From IMG/VR virus record IMGVR_UViG_3300048813_000140, positions 50,702 through 114,701 of that record: a stretch of DNA of 64,000 bases; one strand, 5' to 3'. The notes under the pieces were generated by a model. It ran no database searches. It saw nothing but the letters and a program-made list of their open reading frames with translations, and was not told where the DNA came from. How positions within the stretch are numbered: the first letter of the stretch is position 1; every line of letters begins with the position of its first letter. The position numbers were made by a program, and so were the translations under genes. Origin of the DNA: a virus. Lineage: Duplodnaviria > Heunggongvirae > Uroviricota > Caudoviricetes. Of the stretch, positions 1 to 18,795 are shown piece by piece.

Positions 1-119
1 AAAGTAATGCGTTTAAAAAATCATTTTTTTGGATCGCGATTACTAATAGGGGAGTGGGTAAATTATTGTATTGTATAATCTATTAATAGAAAATCATTTT
101 TTTGGTGTATCATAATAGA

Positions 120-333
120 ACGTATGTAGTTTTTACATTGTTTATAAGTTCTACAATTGACTCAACTTATTGACTTCATTCTAATATAACCAAAATAAAG
201 CGTTGTATGACCATTAATTTGACATACGTATTAGAATGAGATCAAATAGAATTGAGGTGTTATCCTATTTAGTTTAGGTATACGCATTGCAATGATAGTC
301 TATATCGAAACTAACTAACGAAAGGGTTTTAAA
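120..333 (+). promoter_or_regulatory. Upstream cassette A ending in a sigma-54-like -24/-12 element (aGGtat-N5-TTGCA at 276-291)
   Basis: GG at 277-278 and GC at 289-290, the exact sigma-54 spacing. It shares the CAATAGAAT and AGTTCTACA blocks with six other cassettes. The ATG is at 334. Confidence 0.45.
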
Positions 334-1035
334 ATGAATACGATTAGACGTGACAAAAATGGTCGCCGTAGTTTTAAAGGCAAAACAACTAATAGTCCAG
401 GCAAGTCTCAAAACGAGGCATTCTATGACGCAGTTTTCTACGTCCATCTATACGCCTATCTTAAAGCTAACAAAAACGCAACGGCTCACATCTTAGTTGG
501 AGACGTATCAGGATTAGACAGACATATTGGCAGACTCCTTGCACTAGGCTTTTTAATTCAAAACATTTATATACACGAATTAGTTGACGAGTTAGCAGAT
601 AGTCTAAAACTCGCATGTCTCAAAAGGGGATATAAGTGTAAAGTTGAGACAGGTTGCATGATCTCAAAATTAGACAAATTTGGCATGGCTGGCATGAATA
701 TTGCATACGTAGAATTTGATGGTACGTCCAGTTATGGACGTTTTGAGTTTAAATTGTTTCAATTATGTAAAATATACAATATTCCATTTATTTTGACTGA
801 AGGCGCCTCACGCTATCAAGACGTTAACTTTAAGTCGTGGTGTCAATCCAATGGCATTAAAAAGACCATTGACGAAAGGCATGCATACGAAAACAGAGCG
901 CCTAGATATGAATTGGAACGTATAGCCCCAATAGTGGCTCAAAAAGAGATGAAAGGCTATGTATCTCATTACGAGACATATCAAGGCGTTAGTGGAATGT
1001 ATACTCAAGCATTTATAAATAAAAGGTATATCTAA
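334..1035 (+). CDS. hypothetical protein (233 aa)
   Basis: Long ORF directly downstream of cassette A. RBS aaaggg-N7-ATG. Contains the recurring in-frame SQNE and YET peptides. Confidence 0.6.
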   Translation: MNTIRRDKNGRRSFKGKTTNSPGKSQNEAFYDAVFYVHLYAYLKANKNATAHILVGDVSGLDRHIGRLLALGFLIQNIYIHELVDELADSLKLACLKRGYKCKVETGCMISKLDKFGMAGMNIAYVEFDGTSSYGRFEFKLFQLCKIYNIPFILTEGASRYQDVNFKSWCQSNGIKKTIDERHAYENRAPRYELERIAPIVAQKEMKGYVSHYETYQGVSGMYTQAFINKRYI

Positions 1036-1208
1036 TGAAAAAATCTGAACTAATTGAAAAAATCATTGAGGCGAGACTTAAAACCATGTCCTTAAAACAA
1101 TTGCAAGACCTATATCGCAAAAACTTTAGAGACATATATCAAGACTATGACTTATTGAGTCTAGAATTGGAGTATAAGAGACTAACTGAAAAAAGACTGG
1201 ATAACTGA
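1035..1208 (+). CDS. small hypothetical protein (57 aa)
   Basis: ATG overlaps the upstream stop (TAATG). Not in the ORF track because it is under 60 aa. The frame was checked by hand. Confidence 0.35.
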   Translation: MKKSELIEKIIEARLKTMSLKQLQDLYRKNFRDIYQDYDLLSLELEYKRLTEKRLDN

Positions 1209-1424
1209 CTAAGATTTTGACATTGGATAACAGTTCTACATAGTTGCCTAACTTATTGTAAACACTTGTAAAATATTGTAAAATGGTGATTAGTTGTTTA
1301 TAAGTTTTACACTGTATTGGTTTGAGACTCAATAGAATCGCGGTGTTATCCTATTGGTTTTGTGGCATATGCGTTGCATTGATATACTGTATCAAGACGT
1401 TAACAACTAACTAAGGGGATACCA
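1205..1424 (+). promoter_or_regulatory. Upstream cassette B with a sigma-54-like -24/-12 element (TGGCAT-atgcg-TTGCA at 1363-1378)
   Basis: Close match to TGGCAC-N5-TTGCA. Upstream TTGACATTGGATA...AGTTCTACA block and CAATAGAATCG block are present. A conserved leader (GATATACTGTATCAAGACGTTAACA) follows. RBS AAGGGGA. Confidence 0.55.
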
Positions 1425-1598
1425 TGCAACGCAAAACGCTAACTATAAATAATCTCACTTTCGATCTAGTGATTCATTCTATTGACGGCGAAGTCTCAGA
1501 AGTATACGCGTCTCATAATGGGATGGAAATTGCCTTCGCGTATGATCTTGAGTCAATAGACGACAAGTTAACTGAATTCGTTTCGAACTGGTCTTAAT
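1425..1598 (+). CDS. small hypothetical protein (57 aa)
   Basis: ATG follows an AAGGGGATACC RBS downstream of cassette B. The frame was translated by hand. Confidence 0.45.
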
Positions 1599-1673
1599 TT
1601 GATACAGTGGCGAGCGTCTCTGGATGGGACGTTCTCTAATGTACCAAAACAATACGTAACAAAGGGGGATTCT

Positions 1674-2033
1674 ATGTTTAGGGCTATCAATGGCTGGACT
1701 AAAGCTAGCATAATCGCGCACTTGACTCAAAATTGGAGAGGGAATAGTTTTACGGTCAAAGGGGGCAAGTTCTCATGTCGATACAGAGGTCCTGATAGCA
1801 AAAAATGTGCCGTTGGCATGTTTATACCTGATAGCCTATATGAGGCTAGTTTTGAGACGCTTCCCGTTAACAGAATTATAGGTCCTAACTGTACTGCGTT
1901 AGCGCTTGCAATGCCTCTCGAAACATATGCTTTGTCAATTTTGCAAGGAATACACGACTATCATGCCTCAGAATGGAACAGTGATGCGTTGCCCTTTTTG
2001 ATTCAATGGGTTGAAAAAAACGTGGAGGCGTAA
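1674..2033 (+). CDS. hypothetical protein (119 aa; the ORF-track frame begins at 1599)
   Basis: The internal ATG at 1674 has a strong AAGGGGGAT RBS. There is no RBS at 1599. Contains the SFET peptide. Confidence 0.55.
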   Translation: MFRAINGWTKASIIAHLTQNWRGNSFTVKGGKFSCRYRGPDSKKCAVGMFIPDSLYEASFETLPVNRIIGPNCTALALAMPLETYALSILQGIHDYHASEWNSDALPFLIQWVEKNVEA

Positions 2034-2034
2034 A

Positions 2035-2190
2035 ATGTGCCAAAATGATACATTGCAGTTGGGGCCTTTCAAGTATATAGTATTGCAACGCGTTGAATCA
2101 ATGGTCCTGTTAGGATGGAGAGATAGCATGTCCCATATTGAGAAAACGATGTGGGTCAATTTGAAACATTTACAAGGAGTATCAAAATGA
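2035..2190 (+). CDS. small hypothetical protein (51 aa)
   Basis: GGAGG RBS 6 nt before the ATG. The stop overlaps the next start (ATGA). Confidence 0.35.
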   Translation: MCQNDTLQLGPFKYIVLQRVESMVLLGWRDSMSHIEKTMWVNLKHLQGVSK

Positions 2191-2402
2191 TCAATCCCAA
2201 TAAGATACACAGTCGTGGTATTGTACGCTCTAAAGACCGATTTGGTGGCGGTACAATACAGATAGGTCCTAATATATTTGAAACGGCTTTAGGCGTTGAC
2301 CTGTCTCGTTTTGAGATTGGTGATGTGGTTTCAATTAGTTGTAGTTATCGCATTACTTCAGACCGATACGTTATTGACTCGGTTAGAAAGGTTAGGTCTT
2401 AA
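2187..2402 (+). CDS. hypothetical protein (71 aa)
   Basis: RBS plus start context CAAGGAGTATCAAAATG, a member of the recurring translation-initiation motif. The track used an upstream GTG. Confidence 0.5.
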   Translation: MINPNKIHSRGIVRSKDRFGGGTIQIGPNIFETALGVDLSRFEIGDVVSISCSYRITSDRYVIDSVRKVRS

Positions 2403-2627
2403 ATGGCGCGGTTAGCCGTTAGGAGAGACTATTGTAAAATATACAATATAATGGGGCGCTATTCGGACTTGTCCTATTGGATTGTAATGTATCATTCTGG
2501 GGCGTATGGTTTTGGATATATGGCCCAAGGCAGGTTTTGGTTGTCTCACGATGAGAAAGTGTCCCAAAATGAGATTGTTGACCTCATTGCGCGGCGCGAA
2601 TCTGAATTTGAGACAAGTGCCGACTAA
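2403..2627 (+). CDS. hypothetical protein (74 aa)
   Basis: The ORF abuts the upstream stop. Contains the SQNE and EFET peptides. Confidence 0.45.
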   Translation: MARLAVRRDYCKIYNIMGRYSDLSYWIVMYHSGAYGFGYMAQGRFWLSHDEKVSQNEIVDLIARRESEFETSAD

Positions 2628-2848
2628 GGTATTGACATTGTATAGTTGTTTTACATAGTTAGCTAACCTATTGTAAACAGTTGTAAAATGCTATAAAGTG
2701 CCATTTAATTGACCAATAGTTCGACAGTGTTTTGTTTTGATACTCAATAGAATCGCATGTTTAGGCCATTGATTTTATGGCACAACGCATGCAATAGACT
2801 AATACAGAGCGTTGCAATTAAGCGGCGCCTAACAAAAGGGGATTTAAT
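2628..2848 (+). promoter_or_regulatory. Upstream cassette C with a sigma-54-like -24/-12 element (TGGCAC-aacgc-ATGCA at 2778-2793)
   Basis: Exact GG-N10-GC spacing. TTGACATTGTATAG...TACATAG and CAATAGTTCGACA / CAATAGAATCG blocks lie upstream. The leader is ATAGACTAATACAGAGCG. RBS AAAGGGGAT. Confidence 0.55.
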
Positions 2849-3718
2849 ATGTCTTTAATTTTGAATTTGAATGGCCAACCTGTCTCAAAAACATCCTTTA
2901 CCCAAGACACAAAACATGACTCAAAAAGCGACAAATTTAAGGTCATCGTGCCGGAATATGGTCAAGAGTTGTTATCGGACTATGGTTATAAGCGTGTTTC
3001 ATTGCATACCGGTCGTGCGCGAAAATTGGAAAATGTCAATCACCAGACCACCATTGCAACGTATCAAAATGAGACTGCACTGAAAGTGGGCGACATTTTC
3101 CCGCGTATCACATTGAAAATTCCCCATATATATGGCGCAGTTGAGGCCTTTGCAGCGTTTTTGCGGTTAGCGTGTCTCAATGGCAACGCCTATCGCTTGA
3201 CCGATAGCGGTAAAACCAAAATTAGGCATACGGGCGATGCCCAGTCTCAATTTGAGGCAACTATTAAATTGCTGGTTGACCATACCGCCGAAATGAATGA
3301 CTCAATTCGGGAATTGCAAGCTCGTAACGTAACGCCCGATCAAGTAGCTGAATTCACTCAAGAAGTAGCTCGTCTCAGATTGGGATCTCTCCCAGGCGAC
3401 AAGGACTCAAACATCGTCTCAGTTCAATACGATGATCTTCTCAGAGTGAGACGTGCTGCTGACTCTGGACAAGACGCTTTCACAGTGTATCAAATTGAGC
3501 AGGAAAATGTTCTCAAATATGGCCTAAGATATATGACACGCTCAATTGACGAGGTAACAGGCCGTACCAATTTGAGACAGCTAGTTGCACGCCCTATTAC
3601 GAGAACAGCTCAGGGCGAAATTGAGACAGTGCGCAGTGTCGATATGAATGTCTCAATAATGGAATTAGCTCGTAAAATCCTATTAAATAAGTCGGTGCCT
3701 GTTAGTCAAGCAGCCTAA
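2849..3718 (+). CDS. hypothetical protein (289 aa)
   Basis: Long ORF with RBS AAAAGGGGA. Followed by a strong intrinsic terminator. Confidence 0.7.
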   Translation: MSLILNLNGQPVSKTSFTQDTKHDSKSDKFKVIVPEYGQELLSDYGYKRVSLHTGRARKLENVNHQTTIATYQNETALKVGDIFPRITLKIPHIYGAVEAFAAFLRLACLNGNAYRLTDSGKTKIRHTGDAQSQFEATIKLLVDHTAEMNDSIRELQARNVTPDQVAEFTQEVARLRLGSLPGDKDSNIVSVQYDDLLRVRRAADSGQDAFTVYQIEQENVLKYGLRYMTRSIDEVTGRTNLRQLVARPITRTAQGEIETVRSVDMNVSIMELARKILLNKSVPVSQAA

Positions 3719-3748
3719 CCGTATCGTTCTGATACGACCATAGTTTCG

Positions 3749-3778
3749 CCCTGTCTCGCAATGAGACGGGGCTTTTTT
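3749..3778 (+). terminator. Rho-independent terminator (CCCTGTCTC-gcaat-GAGACGGGG followed by TTTTTT)
   Basis: 9-bp GC-rich stem with one G:U pair, a 5-nt loop, and a T6 run immediately 3' of the stem. Confidence 0.7.
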
Positions 3779-3789
3779 GCGTTTTGTGG

Positions 3790-3900
3790 GCGCGTGCTAT
3801 CAATTGACTGGACTTATTGACTCAACGCCTTGACGGGCCTAACACGGGCCTGTATTGACCGACCTAACGCCTAGCTGTATTGACACAAAAACGTATTGTA
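3790..3900 (+). repeat. Iteron-like array: five (T)ATTGAC repeats interleaved with two CCTAACRC repeats
   Basis: attgactggac / ttattgactcaac / cttgacggg / tattgaccgac / tattgacac lie within about 100 bp. The word ATTGACTCAAC recurs in cassette A (163-173). Confidence 0.45.
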
Positions 3901-4119
3901 TTTTGTGGCACTGTATAAGGTTTTTGTTTCGCCTATAAGTTTTACAGCGTGTTATCCCATTGATTCTATTGCAATATAGCCAAAACCATTGAAAATAGTA
4001 CAATAGTTCGACACTGACTCAATATGCGACTCAATAGAATCAATGCGTTAGCCTATTGATTTTCGGCACGCTCTATGCATTGATATACTGTATCAAGACG
4101 TTAACAAAAAGGGGATAAC
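3880..4119 (+). promoter_or_regulatory. Upstream cassette D with a sigma-54-like -24/-12 element (CGGCAC-gctct-ATGCA at 4064-4079)
   Basis: GG at 4065-66 and GC at 4077-78. Two CAATAGTTCGACA / CAATAGAATC blocks lie upstream. The leader is identical to cassette B (GATATACTGTATCAAGACGTTAACA). Confidence 0.5.
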
Positions 4120-4323
4120 ATGGGAGCGCCGAAAAAAGTTGTATCAAGAGAAGAATATGTATCAAAATGGAACGCCCATTTGAGCCAAATGCTGTGGGTC
4201 AGTTTGGGACTGAATCAAAATGACACAGAGGACTATTTAAAGGCCATTGAGACATTGAGACATATCATAGACGTATCGGCCCAAGAACTGCCATCTCAAA
4301 ATGATACAGAGGAGTCGATATGA
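4120..4323 (+). CDS. hypothetical protein (67 aa)
   Basis: RBS AAAAAGGGGATAAC before the ATG. Contains two in-frame SQND / NQND peptides. Confidence 0.55.
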   Translation: MGAPKKVVSREEYVSKWNAHLSQMLWVSLGLNQNDTEDYLKAIETLRHIIDVSAQELPSQNDTEESI

Positions 4324-4404
4324 AAATCATATGGAACATGCTAGTGTTTTACAGTTTAGGCTATATGCTAGGCGTTTTAATAATTGCAAGTGGAGTATTA
4401 AAAT

Positions 4405-4558
4405 GAGACGCTATATTATTCTGTATCGTAATGCGTCAGGAGTCAAGCGTATCGAAATGATACGCGCATTGGATATAAATGACGCAACGTCTCAAGCTGA
4501 GAAATTCTGTTCCAAAATGGGTCGCACGTTATATGCGATAGATCGTGGATCGTTATGA
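4405..4558 (+). CDS. hypothetical protein (51 aa; the track extends the frame to 4301)
   Basis: The start context GTGGAGTATTAAAATGAGA matches the recurring translation-initiation motif. Confidence 0.35.
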
Positions 4559-4788
4559 GCCGTTTCATTATAAGACGTTATCGCTTTGGCTTTCGCATAG
4601 TTGAGGTAGTAGGACAAGGATCTCATTTTGGTACGCTGGCTATTCAATGGGATGGCCTGTTTCAAACTGAGAATAGAGCGGTATCTCATATCGAGACTGC
4701 TCTCAAAACTGAGCTATCGTATCAAAAAGGAGCGTATCATTATGAAAAAATTACAACTGGTAACGACTCAAAAAGAGACAATCGTTGA
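4555..4788 (+). CDS. hypothetical protein (77 aa)
   Basis: ATGA start/stop overlap. Contains the SHIET peptide. Overlaps the next gene in a different frame. Confidence 0.35.
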   Translation: MSRFIIRRYRFGFRIVEVVGQGSHFGTLAIQWDGLFQTENRAVSHIETALKTELSYQKGAYHYEKITTGNDSKRDNR

Positions 4789-4957
4789 ATATCATACTAA
4801 TACTATGGCCGTCGAGCGCCGCAAAAATGAGTTGTGCTCTAAGTTAGACATTGAATCGGTCGAGATAACAGATACAATACAGCACGTCGAAATAATTGAC
4901 ACGCCTAAAGCGACCATTGAAAAATATATTGATATAGAAGAGGAGGTCTCAAAATGA
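4742..4957 (+). CDS. hypothetical protein (71 aa; the track frame starts at 4628)
   Basis: AAAGGAG RBS 9 nt before the ATG at 4742. Confidence 0.4.
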   Translation: MKKLQLVTTQKETIVEYHTNTMAVERRKNELCSKLDIESVEITDTIQHVEIIDTPKATIEKYIDIEEEVSK

Positions 4958-5043
4958 TACTGTATGGGATTATCGGCACGTTTCTTGCAATATACCTAGC
5001 CTGTAGTTTTTACATGCTAGTCAAAAAACATGAGGAGTCTTAA
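4954..5043 (+). CDS. small hydrophobic peptide (29 aa, one TM helix)
   Basis: Start context GGAGGTCTCAAAATG. Hydrophobic core ILYGIIGTFLAIYLA. Under 60 aa, so not in the track. Confidence 0.3.
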   Translation: MILYGIIGTFLAIYLACSFYMLVKKHEES

Positions 5044-5044
5044 A

Positions 5045-5245
5045 ATGGGACTGGACGAAATTAAAGGCACCGCGTTTTATAAGTGGGCGTGTTTACAGAA
5101 TCCAGAGACACTATTCTATCATTTAATTGAGTGTCTTAAACAAGGCGGCGCTAACAATATTGTATGGGACTTGTTTACAGCGTTAGGTCTCAAGGCAGTG
5201 CACGCCGAGTCAATCATGGTTATGGTACGATTTTTGCAACAATAA
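5045..5245 (+). CDS. hypothetical protein (66 aa; the track lists 5030)
   Basis: Start context GAGGAGTCTTAAAATGGGA. Confidence 0.5.
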   Translation: MGLDEIKGTAFYKWACLQNPETLFYHLIECLKQGGANNIVWDLFTALGLKAVHAESIMVMVRFLQQ

Positions 5246-5434
5246 GAAAGTGAGACATTATGTATACTTGTGAATATAATGAAAAATTGAATGAATGGTC
5301 TATCTTTAGAGATAACGAAATATTTTGCCATTTATATGATACTGATTTTTGGATTTTTGTGTCAAAATGGCCCTGTGAAATAAAACAAATAAAATAAACC
5401 GTCCCATTATGGGACATAACAAGGGAGTATCAAA

Positions 5435-5899
5435 ATGGGATATACGCACTATTGGACTTTCAAAAAGGCACCGCGAGGCACTGCGGCTCAAACTGAGAAA
5501 GTGTACCAAAAAGCGATTAAAGAGTGTACCAAAGTGATACGTGACTATTCTGAGACATTTGGTGGCTTGTCGGGCTATTCGGCTCATTCTGATACATATG
5601 GTGGCGTGCTAGTCAATGGCTCAGAACGAGTCGGTCAATGCGAGCCGTTAGTCTTGAGGGAGCATTTTTCTCAAAATGAGGCATTTAATTTTTGCAAAAC
5701 GGGACAGTATCCCTATGATACAGTGGTCACAGCATGCCTTATCATTTTGAAACATCGGCTCGGTTCTTGCATTGACGTAACGTCTGACGGGCGTGCCGAT
5801 AATTGGAACGACGGTCTCATTTTGGTACAAAAGGTATTGGGTCTCAAAAAGGTACAGATTCCCGATACGATACGCAAAAATGAGAAAATCTCAGCTTGA
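5435..5899 (+). CDS. hypothetical protein (154 aa)
   Basis: Start context GGGAGTATCAAAATGGGA. Contains the SQNE and SETF peptides. Confidence 0.6.
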   Translation: MGYTHYWTFKKAPRGTAAQTEKVYQKAIKECTKVIRDYSETFGGLSGYSAHSDTYGGVLVNGSERVGQCEPLVLREHFSQNEAFNFCKTGQYPYDTVVTACLIILKHRLGSCIDVTSDGRADNWNDGLILVQKVLGLKKVQIPDTIRKNEKISA

Positions 5900-5967
5900 T
5901 ACAGTTCGGTGGCATCCTATCGGTGCCACTCATAGTGTATCAATATGACACACTAAAACAAGGGAGT

Positions 5968-6642
5968 ATTATGGGAAATCTATTGACTCAAAATGGGAAA
6001 ATGAAGAAATCGTCTCAAAATGGGATTACCAATGTTAACTGGACTATTCCAGCCTTTCAGTCCAGTACAGGACTAAAGACTTGTCCTAACGCTGGACTAT
6101 GTTCTATAGGATGTTATGCTAGGAGCGGTGCCTATATGTTCTCTAATGTAAAAAGAGCGCACGAGGCAAAACTTGCATTGACTCAATCTGATACATTCGT
6201 TGGTCTAATAATTGCAGACATAGACTTGTGGCTCAAAAAGAGAAACACAAAGCATCTCAAAGTGAGAATCCACGATGCGGGCGATTTTTATAGTGTCTCA
6301 TATTTAGACAAGTGGGTAAAAATAATGAACCATTTTGAAACAGATAGCCGTGTCTCATTTTACGCCTATACTAAACAAGTCGAATTGTTTAAGACTTCTA
6401 AAGGTATCCCGTCGAATTTTACAGTTATTTTCAGTCAAGGCGGTAAACAAGACCATTTAATTGACATAACTAAAGACCGACACGCGCGCGTATTCCAGAC
6501 CATTGAAGCACTTGAGTCGGCAGGGTATCAAAATGGGACAGAAGACGATATGGTCGCAGCGTGCGGAAAATCAAATAAAATCGGCCTAGTGTTTCACCAC
6601 GCAAAATCATGGGAAAATACAGCATGGGACAAGGTGGCTTAA
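5968..6642 (+). CDS. hypothetical protein (224 aa)
   Basis: The ATG at 5968 follows an AGGGAG RBS. The track's 5896 is a TTG start. The N-terminal motif W-x-I-P...CPNAGLCSIGCYARSGAY faintly resembles phage Gp37/Gp68 family N-termini (low confidence). Confidence 0.55.
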   Translation: MMGNLLTQNGKMKKSSQNGITNVNWTIPAFQSSTGLKTCPNAGLCSIGCYARSGAYMFSNVKRAHEAKLALTQSDTFVGLIIADIDLWLKKRNTKHLKVRIHDAGDFYSVSYLDKWVKIMNHFETDSRVSFYAYTKQVELFKTSKGIPSNFTVIFSQGGKQDHLIDITKDRHARVFQTIEALESAGYQNGTEDDMVAACGKSNKIGLVFHHAKSWENTAWDKVA

Positions 6643-6643
6643 T

Positions 6644-6844
6644 ATGGGACGTACCGATTTACTACGACTCAATGAATGCGCTCAATATTTGATTGACTCA
6701 GAACGAGACGATTTTTACGAATATGTCTTTAATGGAGAAGATCCTATAAATCATGTATTTTCGGTGGCCTATATAGCGTTGCATGGGGAGTCTGATTTTG
6801 AAACGTTAGTCAAAAACCTAAAGGAGTCTCAAAATGGGATCTGA
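6644..6844 (+). CDS. hypothetical protein (66 aa)
   Basis: Its C-terminal codons K-E-S-Q-N-G-I are the RBS plus start of the next gene. Confidence 0.5.
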   Translation: MGRTDLLRLNECAQYLIDSERDDFYEYVFNGEDPINHVFSVAYIALHGESDFETLVKNLKESQNGI

Positions 6845-7142
6845 TTCTATTTTCTTTAAAGTAAAGGGTAAAGCAAGTAAAGACGAAATTAATAAGGCAT
6901 TCAAGGCACGTCAAGAGTCCGATGCCGACGAAAATGGTCATAGACAAGGTTATAGCGGTGATTTTCAGACTGTACACAAAATAGACTTTAGATTGTATCA
7001 AACTGATACGTTCGAGTCTCTAAATGAGGCACAGGAATATTGTCTAAAGCATGCTGAAAAATTCCTAACCGTTATAGCCGTCTACTACAAGAACAAGGAT
7101 TCTCAAATTGATACACTCGTCGGTGGTTGGGGAGCGTGCTAG
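6834..7142 (+). CDS. hypothetical protein (102 aa)
   Basis: Start context AAGGAGTCTCAAAATGGGA. Confidence 0.5.
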   Translation: MGSDSIFFKVKGKASKDEINKAFKARQESDADENGHRQGYSGDFQTVHKIDFRLYQTDTFESLNEAQEYCLKHAEKFLTVIAVYYKNKDSQIDTLVGGWGAC

Positions 7143-7143
7143 A

Positions 7144-7311
7144 ATGGAACAGTATCAAATTGAGACCTATTGGTTTGGGCATGTTGTTTGCATGCGTAGA
7201 AATGGAATAGCCGTCTCAAAAGCGTACAAGACTCATAATGAGGCACAGCAGTATATTCTCAAACTGAGATTGTTAAGGAAATATAAACCGTCTCGATTTG
7301 AGACCAAATAG
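7144..7311 (+). CDS. hypothetical protein (55 aa; the track frame starts at 7108)
   Basis: The ATG follows GGGGAG. Contains the IETY and RFET peptides. Confidence 0.4.
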   Translation: MEQYQIETYWFGHVVCMRRNGIAVSKAYKTHNEAQQYILKLRLLRKYKPSRFETK

Positions 7312-7320
7312 GAGACCAAT

Positions 7321-7482
7321 ATGGAACGTATCGAATTGGATCAAGACGATTTTTGTCCTAATTGTTTGAGTGACAATATATCAAATGGAGACGACTCAAA
7401 TGAATACGGTGACATGCAATTAATATGCCATAATTGTAGCTATCAATGGGAAGTGCCTCAGAATGAGGCGTATAATGAATAG
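7321..7482 (+). CDS. small zinc-ribbon protein (53 aa; CPNC...CHNC)
   Basis: RBS TAGGAGACCAATATG. Two CxxC pairs. Confidence 0.4.
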   Translation: MERIELDQDDFCPNCLSDNISNGDDSNEYGDMQLICHNCSYQWEVPQNEAYNE

Positions 7483-7666
7483 ACATAAGTCTGGCACCAA
7501 AAGTGCATGCTTCAAACGTCTCAAAGTGGGACAGTATATTTATGATACATGGTATGGATCTGGCACAGTTATTGCTAAGAAAAAGACTCGCTGTATCATT
7601 AAGATACATTCTCAATCTGAGGCATGGACCTATGATATGTCTCATATTAGGATGTTTATTGAATAG
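7463..7666 (+). CDS. hypothetical protein (67 aa)
   Basis: ORF-track entry, overlapping the preceding gene. Confidence 0.3.
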   Translation: MRRIMNRHKSGTKSACFKRLKVGQYIYDTWYGSGTVIAKKKTRCIIKIHSQSEAWTYDMSHIRMFIE

Positions 7667-7789
7667 ATAGGTGAATAGGTAAAGCGTCCCATTTTGGGAT
7701 ACTTAGCATGGTATTGAATAGACTAGCGAATAGATAAAAAGTCTCAAATAGAGACAGAAATGGGGATACATTGAAAAATCTAATACTAA

Positions 7790-8060
7790 AGCATGGGGAT
7801 AACGTCAAGGCGTTACGAGACGTTAGCACGTCTTTAGGGGCGTTAACACGCGGCGCGACCTATCGCGTTGACTCCCTTGATAACGGGGCGTTAGTTGTTT
7901 TTACGTCGACCGGACCTATAGAACTAGTCGACTCGACGGGCGAAATAACCGATGCATGCCTTGACGTTAGGCGGTTAGCGCTTAGTGTCGCACTGCCTTT
8001 AGGCGCGTGCCCTATTTTTGACACGACTCGACGGCTAGGCTAGGCCGTTAGGACTTTAAA
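7790..8060 (+). repeat. Array of about 10 (G)CGTTAG / CGTTAAC / CGTTAGG repeats in a locally GC-rich stretch
   Basis: ggcgttacgagacgttagcacg, gggcgttaacacg, ggggcgttagttg, gacgttaggcggttagcgcttag, ggccgttaggac. The overlapping ORF 7771-8043 would need a TTG start. Confidence 0.4.
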
Positions 8061-8544
8061 ATAAATGCGACGTTATAAGCATAGATAAACTATAGACTTA
8101 TAGCGTTGTCTCAGCTTGAGAGTTTTTCTCATTTTGGGATTTTCAACCCTGTACTAGGCGCGTGCGATATAACGTATTTTTTACATTCATTGAATGGCGG
8201 ACCTATTAGAGCGTCAAGAGGCCATTCAATGTTAATATTCTATAATTGATTGATCCGTTTTGGTACGCCCTAATTTAGGACATATCGTTTTAAACGCGAT
8301 TAGAGAGGCAAGCGTAAAGCATTGATTTTATTGAGGATTCTCATACTGGGAGTATGCACATTCAATGCCAATATGTGCTGTCTCAATCTGGGATTTCGGG
8401 GTTGGCATTATACGTGCAAGCATTTTGATTTTGGCACCAAAAGTGCATATATGCACAATTCGTGCCATCCCATAGTGGGATTCTCAAAAATGAACGTCTC
8501 ATTCAGGGATTGTCTCATTTTGGGTCGAAAAATGGAGGATTTTT

Positions 8545-8790
8545 ATGGATAGGATTCAAAAAACATACTATGTTCTAGTCTATAGCAATAGAGAGAGCGC
8601 ATATGCTAGCCCTAATGAGGTAGGGCTATTATGTGGCATTGACGAGTCAAGTGGTGGTTATCCTTATGGCACCGATAAGCTGGGAAGTGCCTACATTTGG
8701 GACAACATGTCCGCACCAAAAAGATATATAGAACAATTCCCGTTCTTAGACTTAGCTATCTTGAATGTTAGGCTAGAGATATCAGATTAG
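8545..8790 (+). CDS. hypothetical protein (81 aa)
   Basis: RBS AAATGGAGGATTTTTATG. Confidence 0.45.
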   Translation: MDRIQKTYYVLVYSNRESAYASPNEVGLLCGIDESSGGYPYGTDKLGSAYIWDNMSAPKRYIEQFPFLDLAILNVRLEISD

Positions 8791-9078
8791 ACTGATAGGT
8801 CTAAAACGTCCTAATCCTGCTTATAGGGCTGCCTTTCAAGGTTGCCTTTGTCGTTTGTGGTATCTGAGTCAATCGTTGATTTAAAGGCCAATTTGTCCAT
8901 TTTATAGGCCTATGGAGTGGGTAACGGGGAGTGGGTTGACAGCCCTCTCCCTAAAATCGTTTTTCAGAAGTGTTTTTTCTCAAAATCGAATTTTTAGGTG
9001 TATATAGTGGTGACTAAGTTATAGAGCGCGAAGCGTCACACAGCATAGCGCAGCGTAACAAAACTTTACATCTATTTT

Positions 9079-9176
9079 TTTATATCATAAAAAGAACAAA
9101 TAAAAAGAATAAAAAATGACTAAATAACAAAATAAATTGTTTTTTGGCTCAAAATATTAAGAACAAATGAAGAAAA
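9079..9176 (+). repeat. AT-rich intergenic element of about 100 bp, copy 1 (copy 2 is at 28229-28326)
   Basis: Two near-identical blocks: ttatatcataaRaagaacaaataaaaaga and the 46-bp exact match aaataaattgttttttggctcaaaatattaagaacaaatgaagaaa. Confidence 0.6.
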
Positions 9177-9366
9177 ACCCCGATGTCTGTAAAGTTTACA
9201 CTCGCTCAGAAGTTTGACACGCTGCTAACGATATGAATACAGGCCCCTACTGGGTAAAATGGTAAAAACTGTCTATAAGTTCTCCAAAACCCTTTTTTCA
9301 GGTCTCTAATAAAATCAACGCATTGAGTCTGGCACGCTACCTGCATTAGATATCTGTACCCCTTGT

Positions 9367-9405
9367 CCCACAGATAGCTTGGACGGTGATTCTGTGGGTA
9401 TTTTT
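9367..9405 (+). terminator. Hairpin CCCACAGA-N16-TCTGTGGG followed by a T-rich run (terminator- or operator-like)
   Basis: 8-bp perfect inverted repeat followed by tattttta, 30 nt before the ATG at 9434. Confidence 0.35.
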
Positions 9406-9433
9406 AAATAAGGGCCTAACATGGGAGAATTAT

Positions 9434-9862
9434 ATGGGCGTAGATTCAAAACTTGTAATCAATTCTAGATATGGCGTGGGCGAAATACGTAAGCTAATCG
9501 AAGGCTTTGGTTTCAAAACTAAGGCAGACTATCAAGAAGACCACGCTTTTGTAACCGTTTCGTATCCAGGCCTAGACTTTACTACGTGGCTCTATATGGC
9601 TCGCTCTACGGAATATGGCGGACTTGATAGCACAGTGTTGTCATGTCGCATGAATAATCTAAATATTGCCCTCCTTAGACGCATAGCTGACGTTGTGGGC
9701 GGTTTTCTCAACGAAAACGATACAACATCGGATTGGGTAGACTTTCAAGACCCACACAATGGCTACGCACGATTTATTCTGGATCATGTCATTCTAGCAA
9801 AAGGTCTGACCAGTGGCTCAGAATTGGCCAAGAAACTAGTTAAAGCATTGGACTACGAATAA
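9434..9862 (+). CDS. hypothetical protein (142 aa; the track lists 9386)
   Basis: The ATG at 9434 follows a GGGAGAA RBS. Confidence 0.6.
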   Translation: MGVDSKLVINSRYGVGEIRKLIEGFGFKTKADYQEDHAFVTVSYPGLDFTTWLYMARSTEYGGLDSTVLSCRMNNLNIALLRRIADVVGGFLNENDTTSDWVDFQDPHNGYARFILDHVILAKGLTSGSELAKKLVKALDYE

Positions 9863-9878
9863 ACAAAGGGGAGGCAGT

Positions 9879-10466
9879 ATGATCCACAGAATTATTAAGC
9901 AAGCCATTGATAACTCTGGCATTATGTATATTGATGACATAAAAGAATTTGAGCGCATGCGTCCAAATATGCCAACGCCTTACTATAAAGCCATCTATAT
10001 CAACCCAGATATAGTGGAACAAGGTGTGGCAGTGGGCCATAAATTTAATGAATGGGAAAGAACAATGAAAACTGAAATGATAGTTATCAACAATGGCTTG
10101 TATCCCTATTCAGACGCCAAACTTGCCCAGTTATTCTTTCATGAATTGGCCCATGCAACGGGCAGAGAAGGACGACTTAATAGGGTAGGGCATACACAAT
10201 TCTTCAAAGGATCTCCACACATGAGAGAGGAAGAAGAATTGATTGCTGAGATAGCTAGTGGATTATTGATGGAGCATTTTGGTTTGGCTACCAAGGAAAC
10301 TAGAGTAAGTAATCAAGAATACTTAGAATTTCAACTAATGTGGATACCCACTTCATTGCTTACAGAACTAATGGCAACGACCAATAGGAGAGCGGGAGAG
10401 GCTACAGCATATATTTTAGATAACTGGATTAAGGAAATCGAATTTTTACAAGAGAAGGCGGCTTAG
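9879..10466 (+). CDS. zincin-like metallopeptidase domain protein (ArdC / MPTase-PolyVal-like)
   Basis: The motif FFHELAHATGREGRLNR matches the HExxHxTGxxxRLxR signature of ArdC-C-terminal-type zincins. RBS GGGGAGG. Confidence 0.6.
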   Translation: MIHRIIKQAIDNSGIMYIDDIKEFERMRPNMPTPYYKAIYINPDIVEQGVAVGHKFNEWERTMKTEMIVINNGLYPYSDAKLAQLFFHELAHATGREGRLNRVGHTQFFKGSPHMREEEELIAEIASGLLMEHFGLATKETRVSNQEYLEFQLMWIPTSLLTELMATTNRRAGEATAYILDNWIKEIEFLQEKAA

Positions 10467-10467
10467 T

Positions 10468-10640
10468 ATGGTACGATTTAATCTGATACTTATTCCATTC
10501 TCATCTAGGGATCTCTATACGCTAATAGATGGCGAGATAGATAAAGCATTTAGAGAGTACTTTTTCTTTGGCATAAGAATTGCAAGACTATCTAAGAATT
10601 TTGAGTTTCAATTTGCGAAACTAGGAAGTGGGCTAAAATG
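10468..10640 (+). CDS. small hypothetical protein (57 aa)
   Basis: Tight packing. Translated by hand. Under 60 aa. Confidence 0.3.
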
Positions 10641-10799
10641 AAACGAAGTACGTGGGCTACGTTGATAGTAATATGTATTGGAATGAATACGGTTTGTGCA
10701 ATTCAAGGCATTTTTTTGGATAACTTATGGATAATTTTAGTAAATCTTGCCGCATTACTATTCAATGCTCTTGTAGTTTTGCCAAAATTAATAGATTGA
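10638..10799 (+). CDS. small membrane protein (53 aa, 2 TM)
   Basis: RBS GGAAGTGGG. Hydrophobic throughout. Confidence 0.35.
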   Translation: MKRSTWATLIVICIGMNTVCAIQGIFLDNLWIILVNLAALLFNALVVLPKLID

Positions 10800-10811
10800 A
10801 AAGGAGACGTT

Positions 10812-10952
10812 ATGCAGATCTATTGTATCATTTTGTTAAGTCTTTCTCTAATTGGATTGGTTAACGAGGATGGAGACGATAGGCGCGTTGCCATATTCAT
10901 TAGGGCATTGATATACTTGCCGATCTATGGCAGAATTTTTGGGTGGTGGTGA
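10812..10952 (+). CDS. small membrane protein (46 aa)
   Basis: Strong RBS AAAGGAGACG. The stop overlaps the next start (TGAATG). Confidence 0.35.
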   Translation: MQIYCIILLSLSLIGLVNEDGDDRRVAIFIRALIYLPIYGRIFGWW

Positions 10953-11312
10953 ATGAAACAGGTAGTTTGTATTAAAAATTTTTGCTCACTAAGTAGTACA
11001 ACCTTGGACCTTACACTGGGTAAGGTATACGACGTCGTTAAAGAGCACAACTTAGGCCCTGGTGGATTTTCTGTAATGGTATATGATGTCATCGACGATA
11101 CGGGTAGAATCAATACATATAACCAGCAGTATTTCCAATACAATTTGCAGCCTACAGCGCAACCCTATCCAACAGACTGGCTTGATGCTATGAAGTACAC
11201 AACCCGGAAAATGCCAAATTTTGTAAAGAACATGTGTCAGCACAAATGGACGCATTATGTTGGGATTAGAGAAGAGTACGATTTTTGCAGTATTTGTGAC
11301 TTGAAGAAATAA
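10953..11312 (+). CDS. hypothetical Cys-containing protein (119 aa)
   Basis: ORF track. Coupled to the upstream gene. Confidence 0.6.
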   Translation: MKQVVCIKNFCSLSSTTLDLTLGKVYDVVKEHNLGPGGFSVMVYDVIDDTGRINTYNQQYFQYNLQPTAQPYPTDWLDAMKYTTRKMPNFVKNMCQHKWTHYVGIREEYDFCSICDLKK

Positions 11313-11332
11313 CATCTAACAAAGGAAAGTTT

Positions 11333-11560
11333 ATGAAGTATCTATTGATTGCCCTGGTAGCCTGTATTGGTTGCGCTCAACCACCACCACCCTATTGGAC
11401 TATGACATGGGCATGTGCGACTCAAAGCTGTGCGTACCATATGGGAGCATGGAATGGCGCTGGACAATTCAATCAAGAGAATGATTGTCTCGTTTGGGAG
11501 ACTGCATTTATTAACTCATATCAGGGCGCTACAGTTACGGCCTGTACGCAACACAACTAG
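11333..11560 (+). CDS. small lipoprotein (75 aa; lipobox LVAC)
   Basis: MKYLLIALVACIGCAQ is a signal peptide plus lipobox. RBS AAAGGAAAG. Confidence 0.55.
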   Translation: MKYLLIALVACIGCAQPPPPYWTMTWACATQSCAYHMGAWNGAGQFNQENDCLVWETAFINSYQGATVTACTQHN

Positions 11561-11568
11561 GAGGATAT

Positions 11569-11790
11569 ATGTTAGATCTAAAAAAGATCAACAATAAGGA
11601 AGAGTTGAAGCAGGGAATGGACGTGCTAGTAGTAGGCAGCCATGGCGGTGAGAGTCTAGAGCGCGTTGATTGTATCGACAATGAAGAAATATCGACTGTC
11701 AGTCCATTGAACGGCATACAAAAACGCTTTAAAAAATCAATTAGCGACTACGTACATAATAACGATGTATATGAAGTTAGAAAGAAATAA
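11569..11790 (+). CDS. hypothetical protein (73 aa)
   Basis: RBS TAGGAGGATATATG. Confidence 0.55.
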   Translation: MLDLKKINNKEELKQGMDVLVVGSHGGESLERVDCIDNEEISTVSPLNGIQKRFKKSISDYVHNNDVYEVRKK

Positions 11791-11799
11791 GGAGAATTT

Positions 11800-12189
11800 A
11801 TGAACGAGATTAAGGTTGGAACTATTGTTGTACCACAAGAAGAATTTACCAAATGGATTCAGGCTCTTAGATCTGGAGAGTACAAACAAACTACGGGACA
11901 ATTAAACAATAATGAAGGATTCTGCTGTCTAGGTGTGGCATGTAAAGTATTAATACCACAAGACAAACTGGAACCAGTAAGGCCTGGCAGTGGATATACT
12001 CCTGGCTTTATTGAGGGTAGAGTGCCAGCATATCACCCTAATGCTCCAGCGTGGTTAAGGTTCATAAATTTGGATTCAGGATCATGGTTGGGATTCAATT
12101 TGGCGTACCTAAATGATTGTGAGCATCTTACGTTCGACGAGATAGCGGACTTGCTCGAAGCAGTCTATATTGAGAAAGTCTTATCATGA
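11800..12189 (+). CDS. hypothetical protein, paralog family 1 (129 aa; KWIQALRSG...GFCCLGVAC...TFDEIADLLEAVYIEKVL)
   Basis: RBS AAGGAGAATTTATG. An intact paralog of the split gene at 17984-18402. Confidence 0.65.
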   Translation: MNEIKVGTIVVPQEEFTKWIQALRSGEYKQTTGQLNNNEGFCCLGVACKVLIPQDKLEPVRPGSGYTPGFIEGRVPAYHPNAPAWLRFINLDSGSWLGFNLAYLNDCEHLTFDEIADLLEAVYIEKVLS

Positions 12190-12425
12190 AATATAGCGAA
12201 TTGCTCGAATTTGTATTTAATGCCTACTTTCAAGACAGAAGTACCACGGCGACAATGTATGATATTAAGACAGCGCGACAGCGCGCGACAGGCCCAAACG
12301 ACAGACCGCGACAGCGCGGCGCGGTGGCTATTAAATCCCAGCTTGAGACAAAATGCGTCTCATTTTGGGACGGTTTGGGCTCTGGTTGGGCGCGTGCGAA
12401 AGTACGGGACGACATTATCAATTAG
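12186..12425 (+). CDS. hypothetical protein (79 aa); covers the GC-rich CGCGACAG x4 repeat
   Basis: ATGA overlap. Contains local GC-rich direct repeats and one GTCTC hairpin motif. Coding status uncertain. Confidence 0.35.
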   Translation: MKYSELLEFVFNAYFQDRSTTATMYDIKTARQRATGPNDRPRQRGAVAIKSQLETKCVSFWDGLGSGWARAKVRDDIIN

Positions 12426-12439
12426 TTACGCGCGACTAT

Positions 12440-12658
12440 CCCCAATAGGGATAACTGTCTAACCTTTGCAAGTTGTGCAATAGTTCGACACCACACTAAA
12501 TCATTCGAACTATACGGAAATTCCAGATAGTTCAATTCTCTGCTCAAAAGTTCTACACAATCCCACAAATAGAAACCAATAGATTCAATGCGTTATAATT
12601 GGCACGCGCTCTGCATTAGACTAATACAGAACGCGCTGATGCGGATTAAGGGGAGAAT
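12440..12658 (+). promoter_or_regulatory. Upstream cassette E with a sigma-54-like -24/-12 element (TGGCAC-gcgct-CTGCA at 12600-12615)
   Basis: CAATAGTTCGACA, AGTTCTACACAAT and CAATAGATTCAATGCG blocks lie upstream. The leader is TAGACTAATACAGAACGCG. RBS AAGGGGAGAATATG. Confidence 0.55.
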
Positions 12659-13394: not shown

Positions 13395-13829
13395 ATGAAA
13401 TTCGATCAGAGCAAGCTAGAGATAGTAACGCTAAAGGGCGAAGAGATCACGGACGAATTTTTCGAGCTAACTAATAAATCGGCTGGCACAATCATGTATT
13501 GGATGATAAACAATCGTCCTTGGCTAACCGGCACCGCGATCAAGTACGAGGGCCAATTTATTGCTTGGTCTGTTCACATCATGCCTGAATTAAAGAATGC
13601 TATTGCGGCAGTACCATTAAAATGGAGGCGAGAGATAGCTGTAGATTTCAGCATTATAGTCAACGAATTAAGAAAGAGCGCTCTAGCCTGTACTCATAAC
13701 GCTAGGCATACATCGTACAATGGCAGAGAAGAGTGTCAATCGTGCGGTTGTCACAGAAACTTAGAGTTAGAAGACCAAAGTCCAAATTCATGGAATGAGC
13801 GTAAGGTTTGGTCAGAGTGGAAAGTCTAG
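13395..13829 (+). CDS. hypothetical protein (144 aa)
   Basis: ORF track. RBS AAAGGGTAAAAAATG. Confidence 0.6.
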   Translation: MKFDQSKLEIVTLKGEEITDEFFELTNKSAGTIMYWMINNRPWLTGTAIKYEGQFIAWSVHIMPELKNAIAAVPLKWRREIAVDFSIIVNELRKSALACTHNARHTSYNGREECQSCGCHRNLELEDQSPNSWNERKVWSEWKV

Positions 13830-13978
13830 ACATTGTATAGAAGTTCGACAGCTTGATTTTGTTCATTAATACTGAACATCGTACAAACATTGAACAGGAG
13901 GCTTGCGTCAAGTCCAATTAAATGATGACGCAGGCTGGCATGCCGATTGCTTTATAGTAATGTATCAAGGGAGAGTAT
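13830..13978 (+). promoter_or_regulatory. Upstream cassette F with a sigma-54-like -24/-12 element (TGGCAT-gccga-TTGCT at 13936-13951)
   Basis: GG-N10-GC spacing. The distal block is TAGACATTGTATAGAAGTTCGACA. The leader is TATAGTAATGTATCAAGGGAG. Confidence 0.5.
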
Positions 13979-16063: not shown

Positions 16064-16071
16064 GAGAACAT

Positions 16072-18571: not shown

Positions 18572-18795
18572 TCAGGACGATGGTCAATAAACAAGAATAT
18601 GATGTGATGTTCGAGGATATTGGAGCACATCAAAGACTTATAGTGTTTCAGGAAGGTAAGCGTATAGGTCACAGAGATCTAGGACTACTAACCGACACAG
18701 GACGTGGAGTGATTGATTACTGTATTAAAAAGATACTAATGGATATTGAGATGGAAGAATTTTTAACAAACCCAAATGGAGAAATTGTTATATGA
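18568..18795 (+). CDS. hypothetical protein (75 aa)
   Basis: ORF track. ATGA overlap. Confidence 0.5.
   Translation: MIRTMVNKQEYDVMFEDIGAHQRLIVFQEGKRIGHRDLGLLTDTGRGVIDYCIKKILMDIEMEEFLTNPNGEIVI

Follow-up and report, generated by a model that had tools for sequence, protein, structure and literature searches.

The locus and its recurrent word

We analysed a stretch of 64,000 nt from a tailed phage genome (IMG/VR record IMGVR_UViG_3300048813_000140, positions 50,702 to 114,701), hereafter the window, at whose left end a 15-nt quasi-palindromic word recurs throughout a block of small genes. The left 13 kb of the window is made of small plus-strand genes, almost all of them without a recognisable family; the family matches obtained there are DUF932 (2849-3718), GP88 (5971-6642) and an ArdC-type metallopeptidase domain (9879-10466). 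Homologues of rIIA and rIIB lie at 13979-17223, and the gene of the major capsid protein is located on the minus strand at 59298-60701. This capsid protein shares 53% identity with its counterpart in Myxococcus phage Mx1, the closest isolate, SPO1-like and Bacteroides phages being far less similar. Because of the Mx1-like capsid, the rII genes and the left end composed of small genes, the source is, as judged from gene content, an uncultured large myovirus distantly related to Mx1. None of 50,697 deposited phage genomes (cultured phages) matched the window at the nucleotide level by megablast. Searches with the GP88-like, rIIA and rIIB proteins did not bring up any clade member in culture, rIIA had no match when viral contigs were scanned, and an exact-protein look-up of the GP88-like protein returned no record.

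The word has the consensus y-GTCTC-A-WWW-T-GRG-A-Y, established on 140 instances pooled from four phages, with a fixed 5-nt spacing; its RNA form is GUCUCAAAAUGGGAC and its mirror form GUCCCAAAAUGAGAC. Using a 17-nt position weight matrix (PWM) with a threshold set at 1.3 matches expected in the shuffled window, we found 69 sites in the 64 kb: 66 in 404-8511, two at 12334/12356 and a weak one at 58301. The density within the block is one site per 123 bp (~75-125 bp) and the boundary is very sharp. The same picture emerges from simpler counts. On the plus strand, CTC-N5-G[AG]G has 33 copies in the first 8 kb, 9 in the 8 kb that follow and 0-3 per 8 kb elsewhere. CTC/GAG stems with loops of 3, 4, 6 or 7 nt are present in 1-2 copies each, and of all 64 three-base stems that can be combined with a 5-base loop, CTC/GAG alone stands out. 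In viral contigs, a scan for the exact 14-mer returned single, chance-level matches only.

The initial annotation had reported an enrichment at the start of the window, with about 25 copies in 1-8520. The enrichment is confirmed against dinucleotide shuffles: the 14-mer GTCTCAAAATGGGA, allowing up to 2 mismatches, matches 24 times for 0.65 expected, 21 of these 24 matches falling within 617-8393. Matches were found at 4946, 5037, 5427, 5985, 6012 and 6525, as well as at 6826, 7687 and 12336/12358, in agreement with the positions listed at the time. The copies are thus present, but the family is broader, as seen from the 66 PWM sites of the block. Two details had to be corrected: the 8-mer core TCAAAATG, supposed to be expected less than once, has an expectation of ~5.2 in the window (22 observed), and the copies announced at 17090, 18040 and 23350 are sub-threshold near-matches. 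The features discussed below are as follows.

404-8527, plus strand: motif-rich block, ~24 small co-oriented genes in 4-5 operons and a non-coding tail, holding 66 of the 69 PWM sites
405-419, plus: site GTCTCAAAACGAGGC, in gene 334-1035
617-631, plus: site GTCTCAAAAGGGGAT, U.G type
936-950, plus: site GGCTCAAAAAGAGAT
963-977, plus: site ATCTCATTACGAGAC
1510-1524, plus: site GTCTCATAATGGGAT
1616-1630, plus: site GTCTCTGGATGGGAC, intergenic
2303-2317, plus: site GTCTCGTTTTGAGAT
2543-2557, plus: site GTCTCACGATGAGAA
2561-2575, plus: site GTCCCAAAATGAGAT, rare C.A type
3244-3258, plus: site GTCTCAATTTGAGGC, in the DUF932 gene
3299-3313, plus: site GACTCAATTCGGGAA
3372-3386, plus: site GTCTCAGATTGGGAT
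3438-3452, plus: site TTCTCAGAGTGAGAC
3748-3782, plus: intrinsic terminator at an operon end, the motif (3753-3767) forming the stem core, GCCCT-GTCTCGCAATGAGAC-GGGGC followed by a T-run
4489-4503, plus: site GTCTCAAGCTGAGAA
4683-4697, plus: site ATCTCATATCGAGAC
4765-4779, plus: site GACTCAAAAAGAGAC
4946-4960, plus: start-codon copy GTCTCAAAATGATAC, gene 4954, no predicted fold
5037-5051, plus: start-codon copy GTCTTAAAATGGGAC, gene 5045, predicted fold of -2.3 kcal/mol
5401-5415, plus: site GTCCCATTATGGGAC, C-G type, intergenic
5427-5441, plus: start-codon word GTATCAAAATGGGAT, gene 5435, non-folding ribosome-binding-site variant
5485-5499, plus: site GGCTCAAACTGAGAA
5618-5632, plus: site GGCTCAGAACGAGTC
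5668-5682, plus: site TTCTCAAAATGAGGC
5985-5999, plus: site GACTCAAAATGGGAA, GP88-like gene, +16
6012-6026, plus: site GTCTCAAAATGGGAT, GP88-like gene, +43, conserved in four phages
6230-6244, plus: site GGCTCAAAAAGAGAA, GP88-like gene, +261, conserved in four phages; same peptide from other codons in relatives L123 and L125
6254-6268, plus: site ATCTCAAAGTGAGAA, GP88-like gene, +285, peptide HLKVRI; synonymous-codon contrast to L123 and L125
6695-6709, plus: site GACTCAGAACGAGAC
6826-6840, plus: start-codon copy GTCTCAAAATGGGAT, gene 6834, full consensus, predicted fold of -3.1 kcal/mol
7016-7030, plus: site GTCTCTAAATGAGGC
7230-7244, plus: site GACTCATAATGAGGC
7256-7270, plus: site TTCTCAAACTGAGAT
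7290-7304, plus: site GTCTCGATTTGAGAC
7455-7469, plus: site GCCTCAGAATGAGGC
7518-7532, plus: site GTCTCAAAGTGGGAC, top PWM score (21.4)
7609-7623, plus: site TTCTCAATCTGAGGC
7686-7700, plus: site GTCCCATTTTGGGAT, C-G type, intergenic
7741-7755, plus: site GTCTCAAATAGAGAC, intergenic
8108-8140, plus: adjacent pair GTCTCAGCTTGAGAG and TTCTCATTTTGGGAT, each followed by a T-run, directly past gene 7771-8043
8338-8352, plus: site TTCTCATACTGGGAG, non-coding
8380-8394, plus: site GTCTCAATCTGGGAT, non-coding
8467-8526, plus: tandem cluster in the leader of gene 8545, ATCCCATAGTGGGAT, (TTCTCAAAAATGAAC), GTCTCATTCAGGGAT, GTCTCATTTTGGGTC
12335-12371, plus: the sole strong sites beyond the block, ATCCCAGCTTGAGAC (reverse polarity) and GTCTCATTTTGGGAC, 230-270 bp upstream of a sigma54-like promoter at 12601

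Sites are found in nearly every cistron of the block, in numbers that scale roughly with cistron length; ~70% of them are intragenic, at relative positions scattered from 0.02 to 0.92 of the gene, and the ~0.9-kb, mostly non-coding tail of the block carries about 9. The gaps between sites have a median of 132 nt and look exponential, without periodicity, and we rejected a periodic or cooperative arrangement on this ground. The suggestion that the word is an early promoter for a non-host RNA polymerase does not survive this distribution, which is dense, largely intragenic, spread over all reading frames and scattered positions, and randomly spaced. The sole sizeable open reading frame (ORF) of the block devoid of a site, 7771-8043, is G+C-rich with the short repeats CCTTGAC and GTTAGGC and has a 50%-identical counterpart in the related contig L121 (3677-3933); it could be a DNA element such as iterons instead of an ORF.

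Some copies coincide with signals of gene expression. The initial annotation had placed the word on start codons, and about 8 start codons are indeed embedded in motif-like words sharing GGAGT[AC]T[CT]AAAATG, but a fold is predicted for only two, those of genes 5045 and 6834. The others carry the non-folding variant GGAGTATCAAAATG, apparently a common ribosome-binding-site word that overlaps the hairpin word. In addition, the word is the core of operon-end terminators, at 3748-3782 in the window and at the equivalent position 3970-3995 in L121.

The word is selected at the nucleotide level

Firstly, the encoded peptide does not account for the word. Intragenic sites occupy the three reading frames in the proportions 19/7/7, and ~9-12 more sites are intergenic; the recurrent S-Q-N-G/E and F-E-T peptides noticed at first sight exist by virtue of the one favoured frame, but all frames are used. 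The last T of the loop is replaced by C or A precisely in the frame where T followed by GA would make a stop codon. Secondly, synonymous opportunities to write the word are used in 30 of 70 cases (43%) in the block, versus 6 of 275 (2%) in 50 other genes of the window. Thirdly, when codons were resampled synonymously, the block coding sequence was expected to contain 3.7-4.6 sites; it contains 31, a number reached in none of 200 simulations. Thus, the word is under strong selection at the nucleotide level.

Duplication was considered as the source of the copies. The mean identity of site flanks is 0.269, for 0.262 expected from composition, with no pair at 0.6, and the 24 block proteins include a single marginal paralogue pair and are otherwise not paralogous. 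A recently duplicated gene family or a mobile mini-element was rejected on account of these random flanks and non-paralogous proteins, together with the absence of indels at the sites, so that the enrichment passes both the shuffling and the duplication controls that had been proposed for it.

Conservation by codon choice in related phages

We examined metagenomic phage contigs recovered with block proteins (L122 is the same contig as L189, and L124 the same as L188). Four of them, L121, L122, L124 and L190, are motif-positive and carry the word as densely as the window or more so, with 10-17 sites per kb in a block with sharp limits, whose upstream boundary is visible in L124 and L190. The small genes of these phages are mostly non-homologous to those of the window, and the word has therefore been written independently into different genes. 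Conversely, L123, L125 and L191-L196 are motif-negative although the same proteins are 44-70% identical, and L126 (55% identity) shows a weak excess, 8-9 copies versus 3.1 in the control.

The GP88-like gene allows a codon-by-codon comparison. In this alignment the peptides HLKVRI, WLKKR and RVSFY are identical in all phages; they are encoded, for example, by CTC AAA GTG AGA in the motif phages and by CTT AAG GTT AGA or TTA AAA GTT CGT in L123 and L125. Three sites are common to all four motif phages aligned. The remaining sites of the gene come and go among the phages through substitutions, in no case through an insertion, and no indel is found at sites. The word is kept by codon choice, L123 and L125 encoding identical peptides otherwise. 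The word is real, statistically overwhelming, conserved in the clade and selected at synonymous sites.

These data bear on the proposal that the word is a conserved junction for the modular shuffling of small genes, similar to PeSL elements, or a by-product of the shared ribosome-binding-site word. Block gene order and content differ greatly among the five phages, as shuffling would have it, and the ~8 start regions that share GGAGT[AC]T[CT]AAAATG are what a by-product of initiation signals would leave. However, most sites (~70%) are inside genes and in all frames, they arise in conserved genes by synonymous point substitution without indels, their flanks are random, and 66 intragenic repeats would favour deleterious deletions; as for the ribosome-binding-site word, its GTATC variant leaves the intragenic hairpins unexplained. 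We consider this explanation largely refuted and give it hardly any weight.

No replacement dispersed hairpin word was found in the motif-negative relatives. Words over-represented in relatives were considered as hairpin analogues and set aside, being tandem arrays (L123, L125, L196) or start-codon contexts (L192, L252). The arrays of L123 (10900-11283) and L196 (34-60, 1750-1880, 4330-4480) share an 18-bp unit (~GGTATACGGCGACGCTCG), and that of L125 (3120-3200) has the 11-bp unit GTAAGAACATT. In L191, the hexamer TAGCCG occurs over the whole locus 17 times on one strand and 9 times on the other, for ~1.5 expected, with no shared context; being context-free and on both strands, it was rejected as a hairpin analogue, and this relative may have a selected word of another kind.

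The word is polar with respect to the coding strand

A perfect palindrome reads alike on both strands, and the informative sites are those in which the two arms differ. CTC-N5-GGG, which would place a U.G pair in mid-stem, occurs 40 times on the plus strand and 6 times on the minus strand of four blocks. In the dominant frame, synonymous change is possible at the variable positions of the 5' arm but not at those of the 3' arm, and avoidance of TGA imposes some of the GGG sites. Coding constraints could thus yield part of the asymmetry, and the peptide sequence was therefore controlled for. Under this control, the TA form is realised at 51% and the TG form at 25%, both ~20 times the background, versus 3% and no enrichment for the mirror form CA. 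Where the peptide forbids the consensus, the forced U.G variant is realised in 30 of 95 cases and the forced C.A variant in 1 of 21 (p=0.013); at the neighbouring stem pair the corresponding figures are 13/46 and 8/76 (p=0.024), and at the innermost pair the forced variants show no difference. A pure coding artefact, partly true through stop avoidance and frame effects, was consequently rejected as the whole explanation. Non-coding sites of the window have T.G as the middle pair 6 times, C-G 3-4 times, T-A 3 times and C.A never. Sites with a perfect left arm and an imperfect right arm number 120, for 57 of the reverse kind. The word is therefore polar with the coding strand. The blocks contain no independent gene on the opposite strand, each minus-strand ORF in them overlapping a real plus-strand gene.

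The predicted folds follow the same polarity. The fold predicted for the 15-mer as RNA (-3 to -5 kcal/mol) has a stem of 6 bp closed by a variable, A/T-rich triloop, and replaces the 5-bp stem and fixed A4U or AU4 loop first described; in the loop, only the first A and the last T are conserved and positions 2-4 vary. For GGG-type sites the minus-strand version reaches -0.5 kcal/mol, that is, no fold, and the DNA versions -0.1 to -1.0 kcal/mol; the pairing probability of these sites in context is 0.40 on plus-strand RNA versus 0.11 on minus-strand RNA. Folding z-scores of longer stretches are unremarkable, and Rfam 15 at gathering score gave no match anywhere in the window. Our reading is that of a putative, protein-stabilised hairpin in which the 5' arm would be recognised as sequence and the 3' arm largely through pairing.

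Several observations weigh against a hairpin read in RNA. Compensatory covariation is absent: at the middle pair C-G equals C.A (6 vs 6) and the outer pairs vary independently, the arms being nearly invariant as sequence with no excess of compensated pairs where they do vary; of the variation in the arms, the wobble-type asymmetry is the one feature in favour of pairing. The variants GTATC...GAGAC and GTCTC...GATAC, which abolish the predicted hairpin, are tolerated symmetrically (19 vs 20 in raw counts, 21% vs 27% when forced). Mirror synonymous positions (phase 0, positions 6 and 18) are equally conserved, with 2 vs 3 changes per 29, and G.U is therefore not freely used there in this phase. 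The local hairpins are marginal in context (mean pairing probability 0.42) with flanks that are not optimised, and neighbouring copies are able to pair with each other. Lone half-sites are enriched and conserved, about a quarter of the sites (16/67) score higher on the minus strand, and conserved arms flanking a variable, A/T-rich centre are expected of the site of a dimeric DNA-binding protein more than of a hairpin recognised in RNA by a protein. Outside the block, the word is not significantly avoided (6 observed vs 9.7 expected by codon resampling). Moreover, no nuclease or RNA-binding protein was recognised with Pfam and PHROG among the ~60 proteins of the window, which is part of a genome and most of whose proteins have no family. 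Finally, the block looks like a host-takeover or early module from its architecture, which is what the word 'early' would rest on.

Many of these properties are those of a double-stranded DNA operator array, in which a dimeric phage or host protein would bind a palindromic site (half-site GTCTCA, 3-bp A/T spacer) and thereby coat, silence, activate or anchor the DNA of the block, for example as a shut-off repressor or roadblock, a sigma54 enhancer-binding protein or a domain marker of the matS/SlmA/Noc type. Arms conserved as sequence without covariation, symmetric tolerance of the GTATC and GTTTC half-site variants, symmetric conservation of mirror synonymous positions, enriched and conserved lone half-sites and the variable A/T-rich centre are all in line with such an array. 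So are two non-coding arrays, the four direct ATGAGAC repeats with one full site in L126 (intergenic, 4186-4283) and, after the block of L121 (4540-4640), the repeats of TGTCGCAATA and TTGTCCCAAT, which include an inverted pair. The only strong sites outside the block of the window, at 12335-12371, are followed 160-270 bp downstream by a sigma54-like promoter, and a PhaR-type DNA-binding protein conserved in L121 and L122 is encoded beside rIIB. A symmetric dimer would be blind to orientation, yet under peptide control GTCTC-N5-GGGAC is ~20-fold enriched and its reverse complement is not, and left arms are the perfect ones about twice as often as right arms (120 vs 57). In addition, there is no helical or array periodicity in the spacing, and sigma54-like sites are rare in L124 and L190 despite their full blocks; a coupling of the word to sigma54-like promoters was rejected for this last reason. 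We regard a DNA operator array as unlikely, though as a serious contender and the main rival of the RNA hairpin.

Polarity and T.G tolerance would also fit a hairpin formed by the plus DNA strand, either single-stranded or as an extruded cruciform, and used by a DNA-level machine as an N4-like hairpin promoter, a nicking or primase site, or for R-loop stabilisation in early replication. N4 early promoters have a 6-bp stem and a 3-nt loop, and the geometry of the word is the same. Against this, sites inside genes at a density of one per 75-125 bp do not resemble promoters; promoters of the N4 type are on the template strand, whereas C.A mismatches would be present here in ~30% of sites; GGG-type DNA hairpins are barely stable (-0.1 to -1.0 kcal/mol); and the longest ORF in the window encodes 716 amino acids, hence the window holds no N4-like giant polymerase. 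This explanation appears to us quite improbable.

Proposed function

The reading that we favour, with a probability of roughly 0.45, is that the word is a class-specific tag on the transcripts of the block, read as an RNA hairpin by a putative factor. The word would be a dispersed cis-acting tag on ~24 co-oriented genes, presumed to be the earliest, host-takeover genes, and point substitution, largely synonymous, would have written it into coding and non-coding sequence alike. Sense-strand reading as a short RNA hairpin in block transcripts is the most likely medium: the 5' arm GUCUC(A) would be read in a sequence-specific manner, the 3' arm could be anything that pairs with it, including through G.U, and the triloop would be A/U-rich. 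A putative sequence-specific factor would then treat the whole transcript class as a unit. Its likeliest effect would be to inactivate, repress or otherwise control the block mRNAs at a developmental switch, in the way RegB uses GGAG; alternatively, it may act on block transcripts by protection or titration. About 66 redundant copies have been kept, and the benefit therefore probably scales with copy number. Among the functions first envisaged, a recognition site is thus favoured by selection, sequence conservation, polarity and restriction to the block; no RegB homologue was seen among the ~60 window proteins scanned, and the target is a 15-nt hairpin word found mostly inside genes, not GGAG in Shine-Dalgarno sequences. 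A 154-residue protein (5435-5899) considered as the reader first seemed motif-specific; it was discarded as it occurs in motif-negative phages too.

The scaling with copy number raises the alternative of an RNA decoy, in which the abundant first transcripts would titrate a host protein that binds RNA, or a component of a defence system that recognises RNA. It would explain the ~66 redundant sites, and both the location in the presumed first-expressed block and the polarity with the transcript agree with it. Then again, no matching host RNA element or Rfam family was found, and the sequence conservation of the 5' arm is equally expected for a phage-encoded reader; we hold a decoy to be improbable.

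Returning to the class-specific tag, a bolder formulation, which we put forward tentatively and would not bet on, is that the host-takeover block is 'barcoded' through synonymous codons with dozens of RNA hairpins for a dedicated putative reader. The reader could be a new family of RNase or repressor, or else a titrated host factor or defence component, and the function would be carried by the number of sites, with no single one decisive. We found no precedent in the literature for the word or for dense intragenic palindromes in phage early regions. If a single reader exists, it would offer direct access to the way in which a large, uncharted group of phages shuts down or protects the genes expressed first, and, if true, the RegB principle would have a second example with a different mechanism. 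The hairpin could serve as bait to isolate the reader. The existence of the word has consequences for annotation, synonymous recoding and phage engineering, as recoding the block genes would erase the signal; it is also a cheap sequence marker that delimits a gene class in the metagenomic contigs of the clade. More generally, selection can lay a regulatory code over ~20% of the nucleotides in a set of protein-coding genes.

Elements neighbouring the block

Sigma54-type GGCAY-N6-TGCA matches number 17 in the window, for 1.07 expected, 15 of them in the first 12.6 kb (691-12615; for example 1364-1378, 2779-2793, 4065-4079, 9331-9345 and 12601-12615, and L121 4799), and several stand 45-60 nt upstream of the first ATG of operons. 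The relatives L121, L122, L124 and L190 have 10, 21, 2 and 2 matches, respectively. This suggests that a subclade of these phages may use the host sigma54 polymerase, for which an activator would then be required. Four homologous leaders of ~220 nt precede block operons (120-336, 1205-1426, 2620-2851 and 3900-4122; mean identity 72%) and include a 32-nt block identical at 1375-1406 and 4076-4107; partial copies are found at 8301-8331, 12461-12491 and 13821-13850, the last one upstream of rIIA.

An element GGGGAGTGGGTAA...AAAATCrTTTTTT brackets the motif block (45-110 and 8905-8990) and is also present after the block of L121 (4686-4760); exact copies of the 9-mer GGAGTGGGT are limited to 51, 8914 and 8928. 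This element could be a class boundary, the edge of a terminal repeat or another type of promoter. Between the block and the next genes lies a 430-bp non-coding region (9000-9430), very A/T-rich at ~9070-9180, which could be an origin or a repeat boundary. Directly after rIIB, 17220-17507 encodes a 95-residue protein that L121 and L122 also have; its match to a PhaR-type DNA-binding domain is strong (PHB_acc_N, E=3e-22), which makes it a candidate regulator with a putative link to the word. A family of small proteins with an MG start, the signature GH..GYSG.F and often a WGAC end has several copies, in motif-positive and motif-negative phages (window 6834-7142 and 9434-9862; L121 4919-5203; L124 11922-12524; L192 ~3769). 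Mid-window genes encode a pentapeptide-repeat protein (22383-23057), an SPFH/Band 7 protein (31613-32416) and a PA14/collagen-like protein (18792-19610).

Comparison with known systems

The endoribonuclease RegB of phage T4 targets GGAG in early mRNAs (PMC1702504, PMC3014915). The likeness resides in a short cis word carried by one class of transcripts, overlapping some initiation regions, through which one factor inactivates the class. In contrast, the RegB word is a 4-nt single-stranded GGAG found mainly in Shine-Dalgarno sequences, whereas the present one is a 15-nt hairpin word, ~70% intragenic. The word would thus be analogous to the RegB/GGAG system and not a member of it, since word, structure and location all differ.

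PeSL elements are composite promoter-terminator cassettes of T4-type phages, intergenic and with a proposed role in recombination (PMC2839356, PMC4122927). Here as there, stem-loop motifs are repeated in the hyperplastic early regions of large myoviruses, among many small ORFan genes. The present word differs in being 15 nt long, mostly intragenic, made by point substitution and free of attached promoter hexamers, only a few of its copies serving as terminator cores (for example 3753-3767). A terminal pre-early block of ~8-10 kb is also known from the first-step transfer of T5, where it ends in an untranslated region rich in repeats and palindromes (10.1101/866236). The block of the window likewise ends in a mostly non-coding stretch with ~9 sites, but the T5 repeats (DnaA boxes and large palindromes) are confined to the untranslated region while the word is spread through genes.

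Among RNA hairpins, the word resembles in size the boxB element of the lambda nut sites. BoxB is a 15-nt hairpin of early transcripts with a 5-bp stem and an A-rich pentaloop, bound by the N protein; it is present once or twice per operon, with a conserved, GNRA-like loop and stems that vary. Here it is the stem that is conserved and the loop that is variable, in dozens of copies. The hairpin promoters of N4 are few, lie upstream of early operons on the template strand and are used by a giant virion RNA polymerase, whereas the 66 sites of the block are mostly intragenic and the stable hairpin is predicted on the non-template strand. Chi, KOPS, DNA uptake sequences and matS/SlmA/Noc sites are dispersed words of whole bacterial chromosomes or macrodomains that act on DNA. 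They share with the present word their over-representation as short words inside coding sequence, a frequently polar or palindromic form and a function through number and distribution; however, the word marks an 8-kb phage block and its spectrum of variants fits the wobble pairing of RNA. Lastly, single-stranded RNA phages such as MS2 disperse coat-protein-binding stem-loops through their genomes as packaging signals. There, too, many weak and degenerate hairpins in coding sequence act collectively via one binding protein; the difference is that MS2 has an RNA genome and its hairpins a role in assembly, whereas the present sites belong to a double-stranded DNA phage and are gathered in one gene block.

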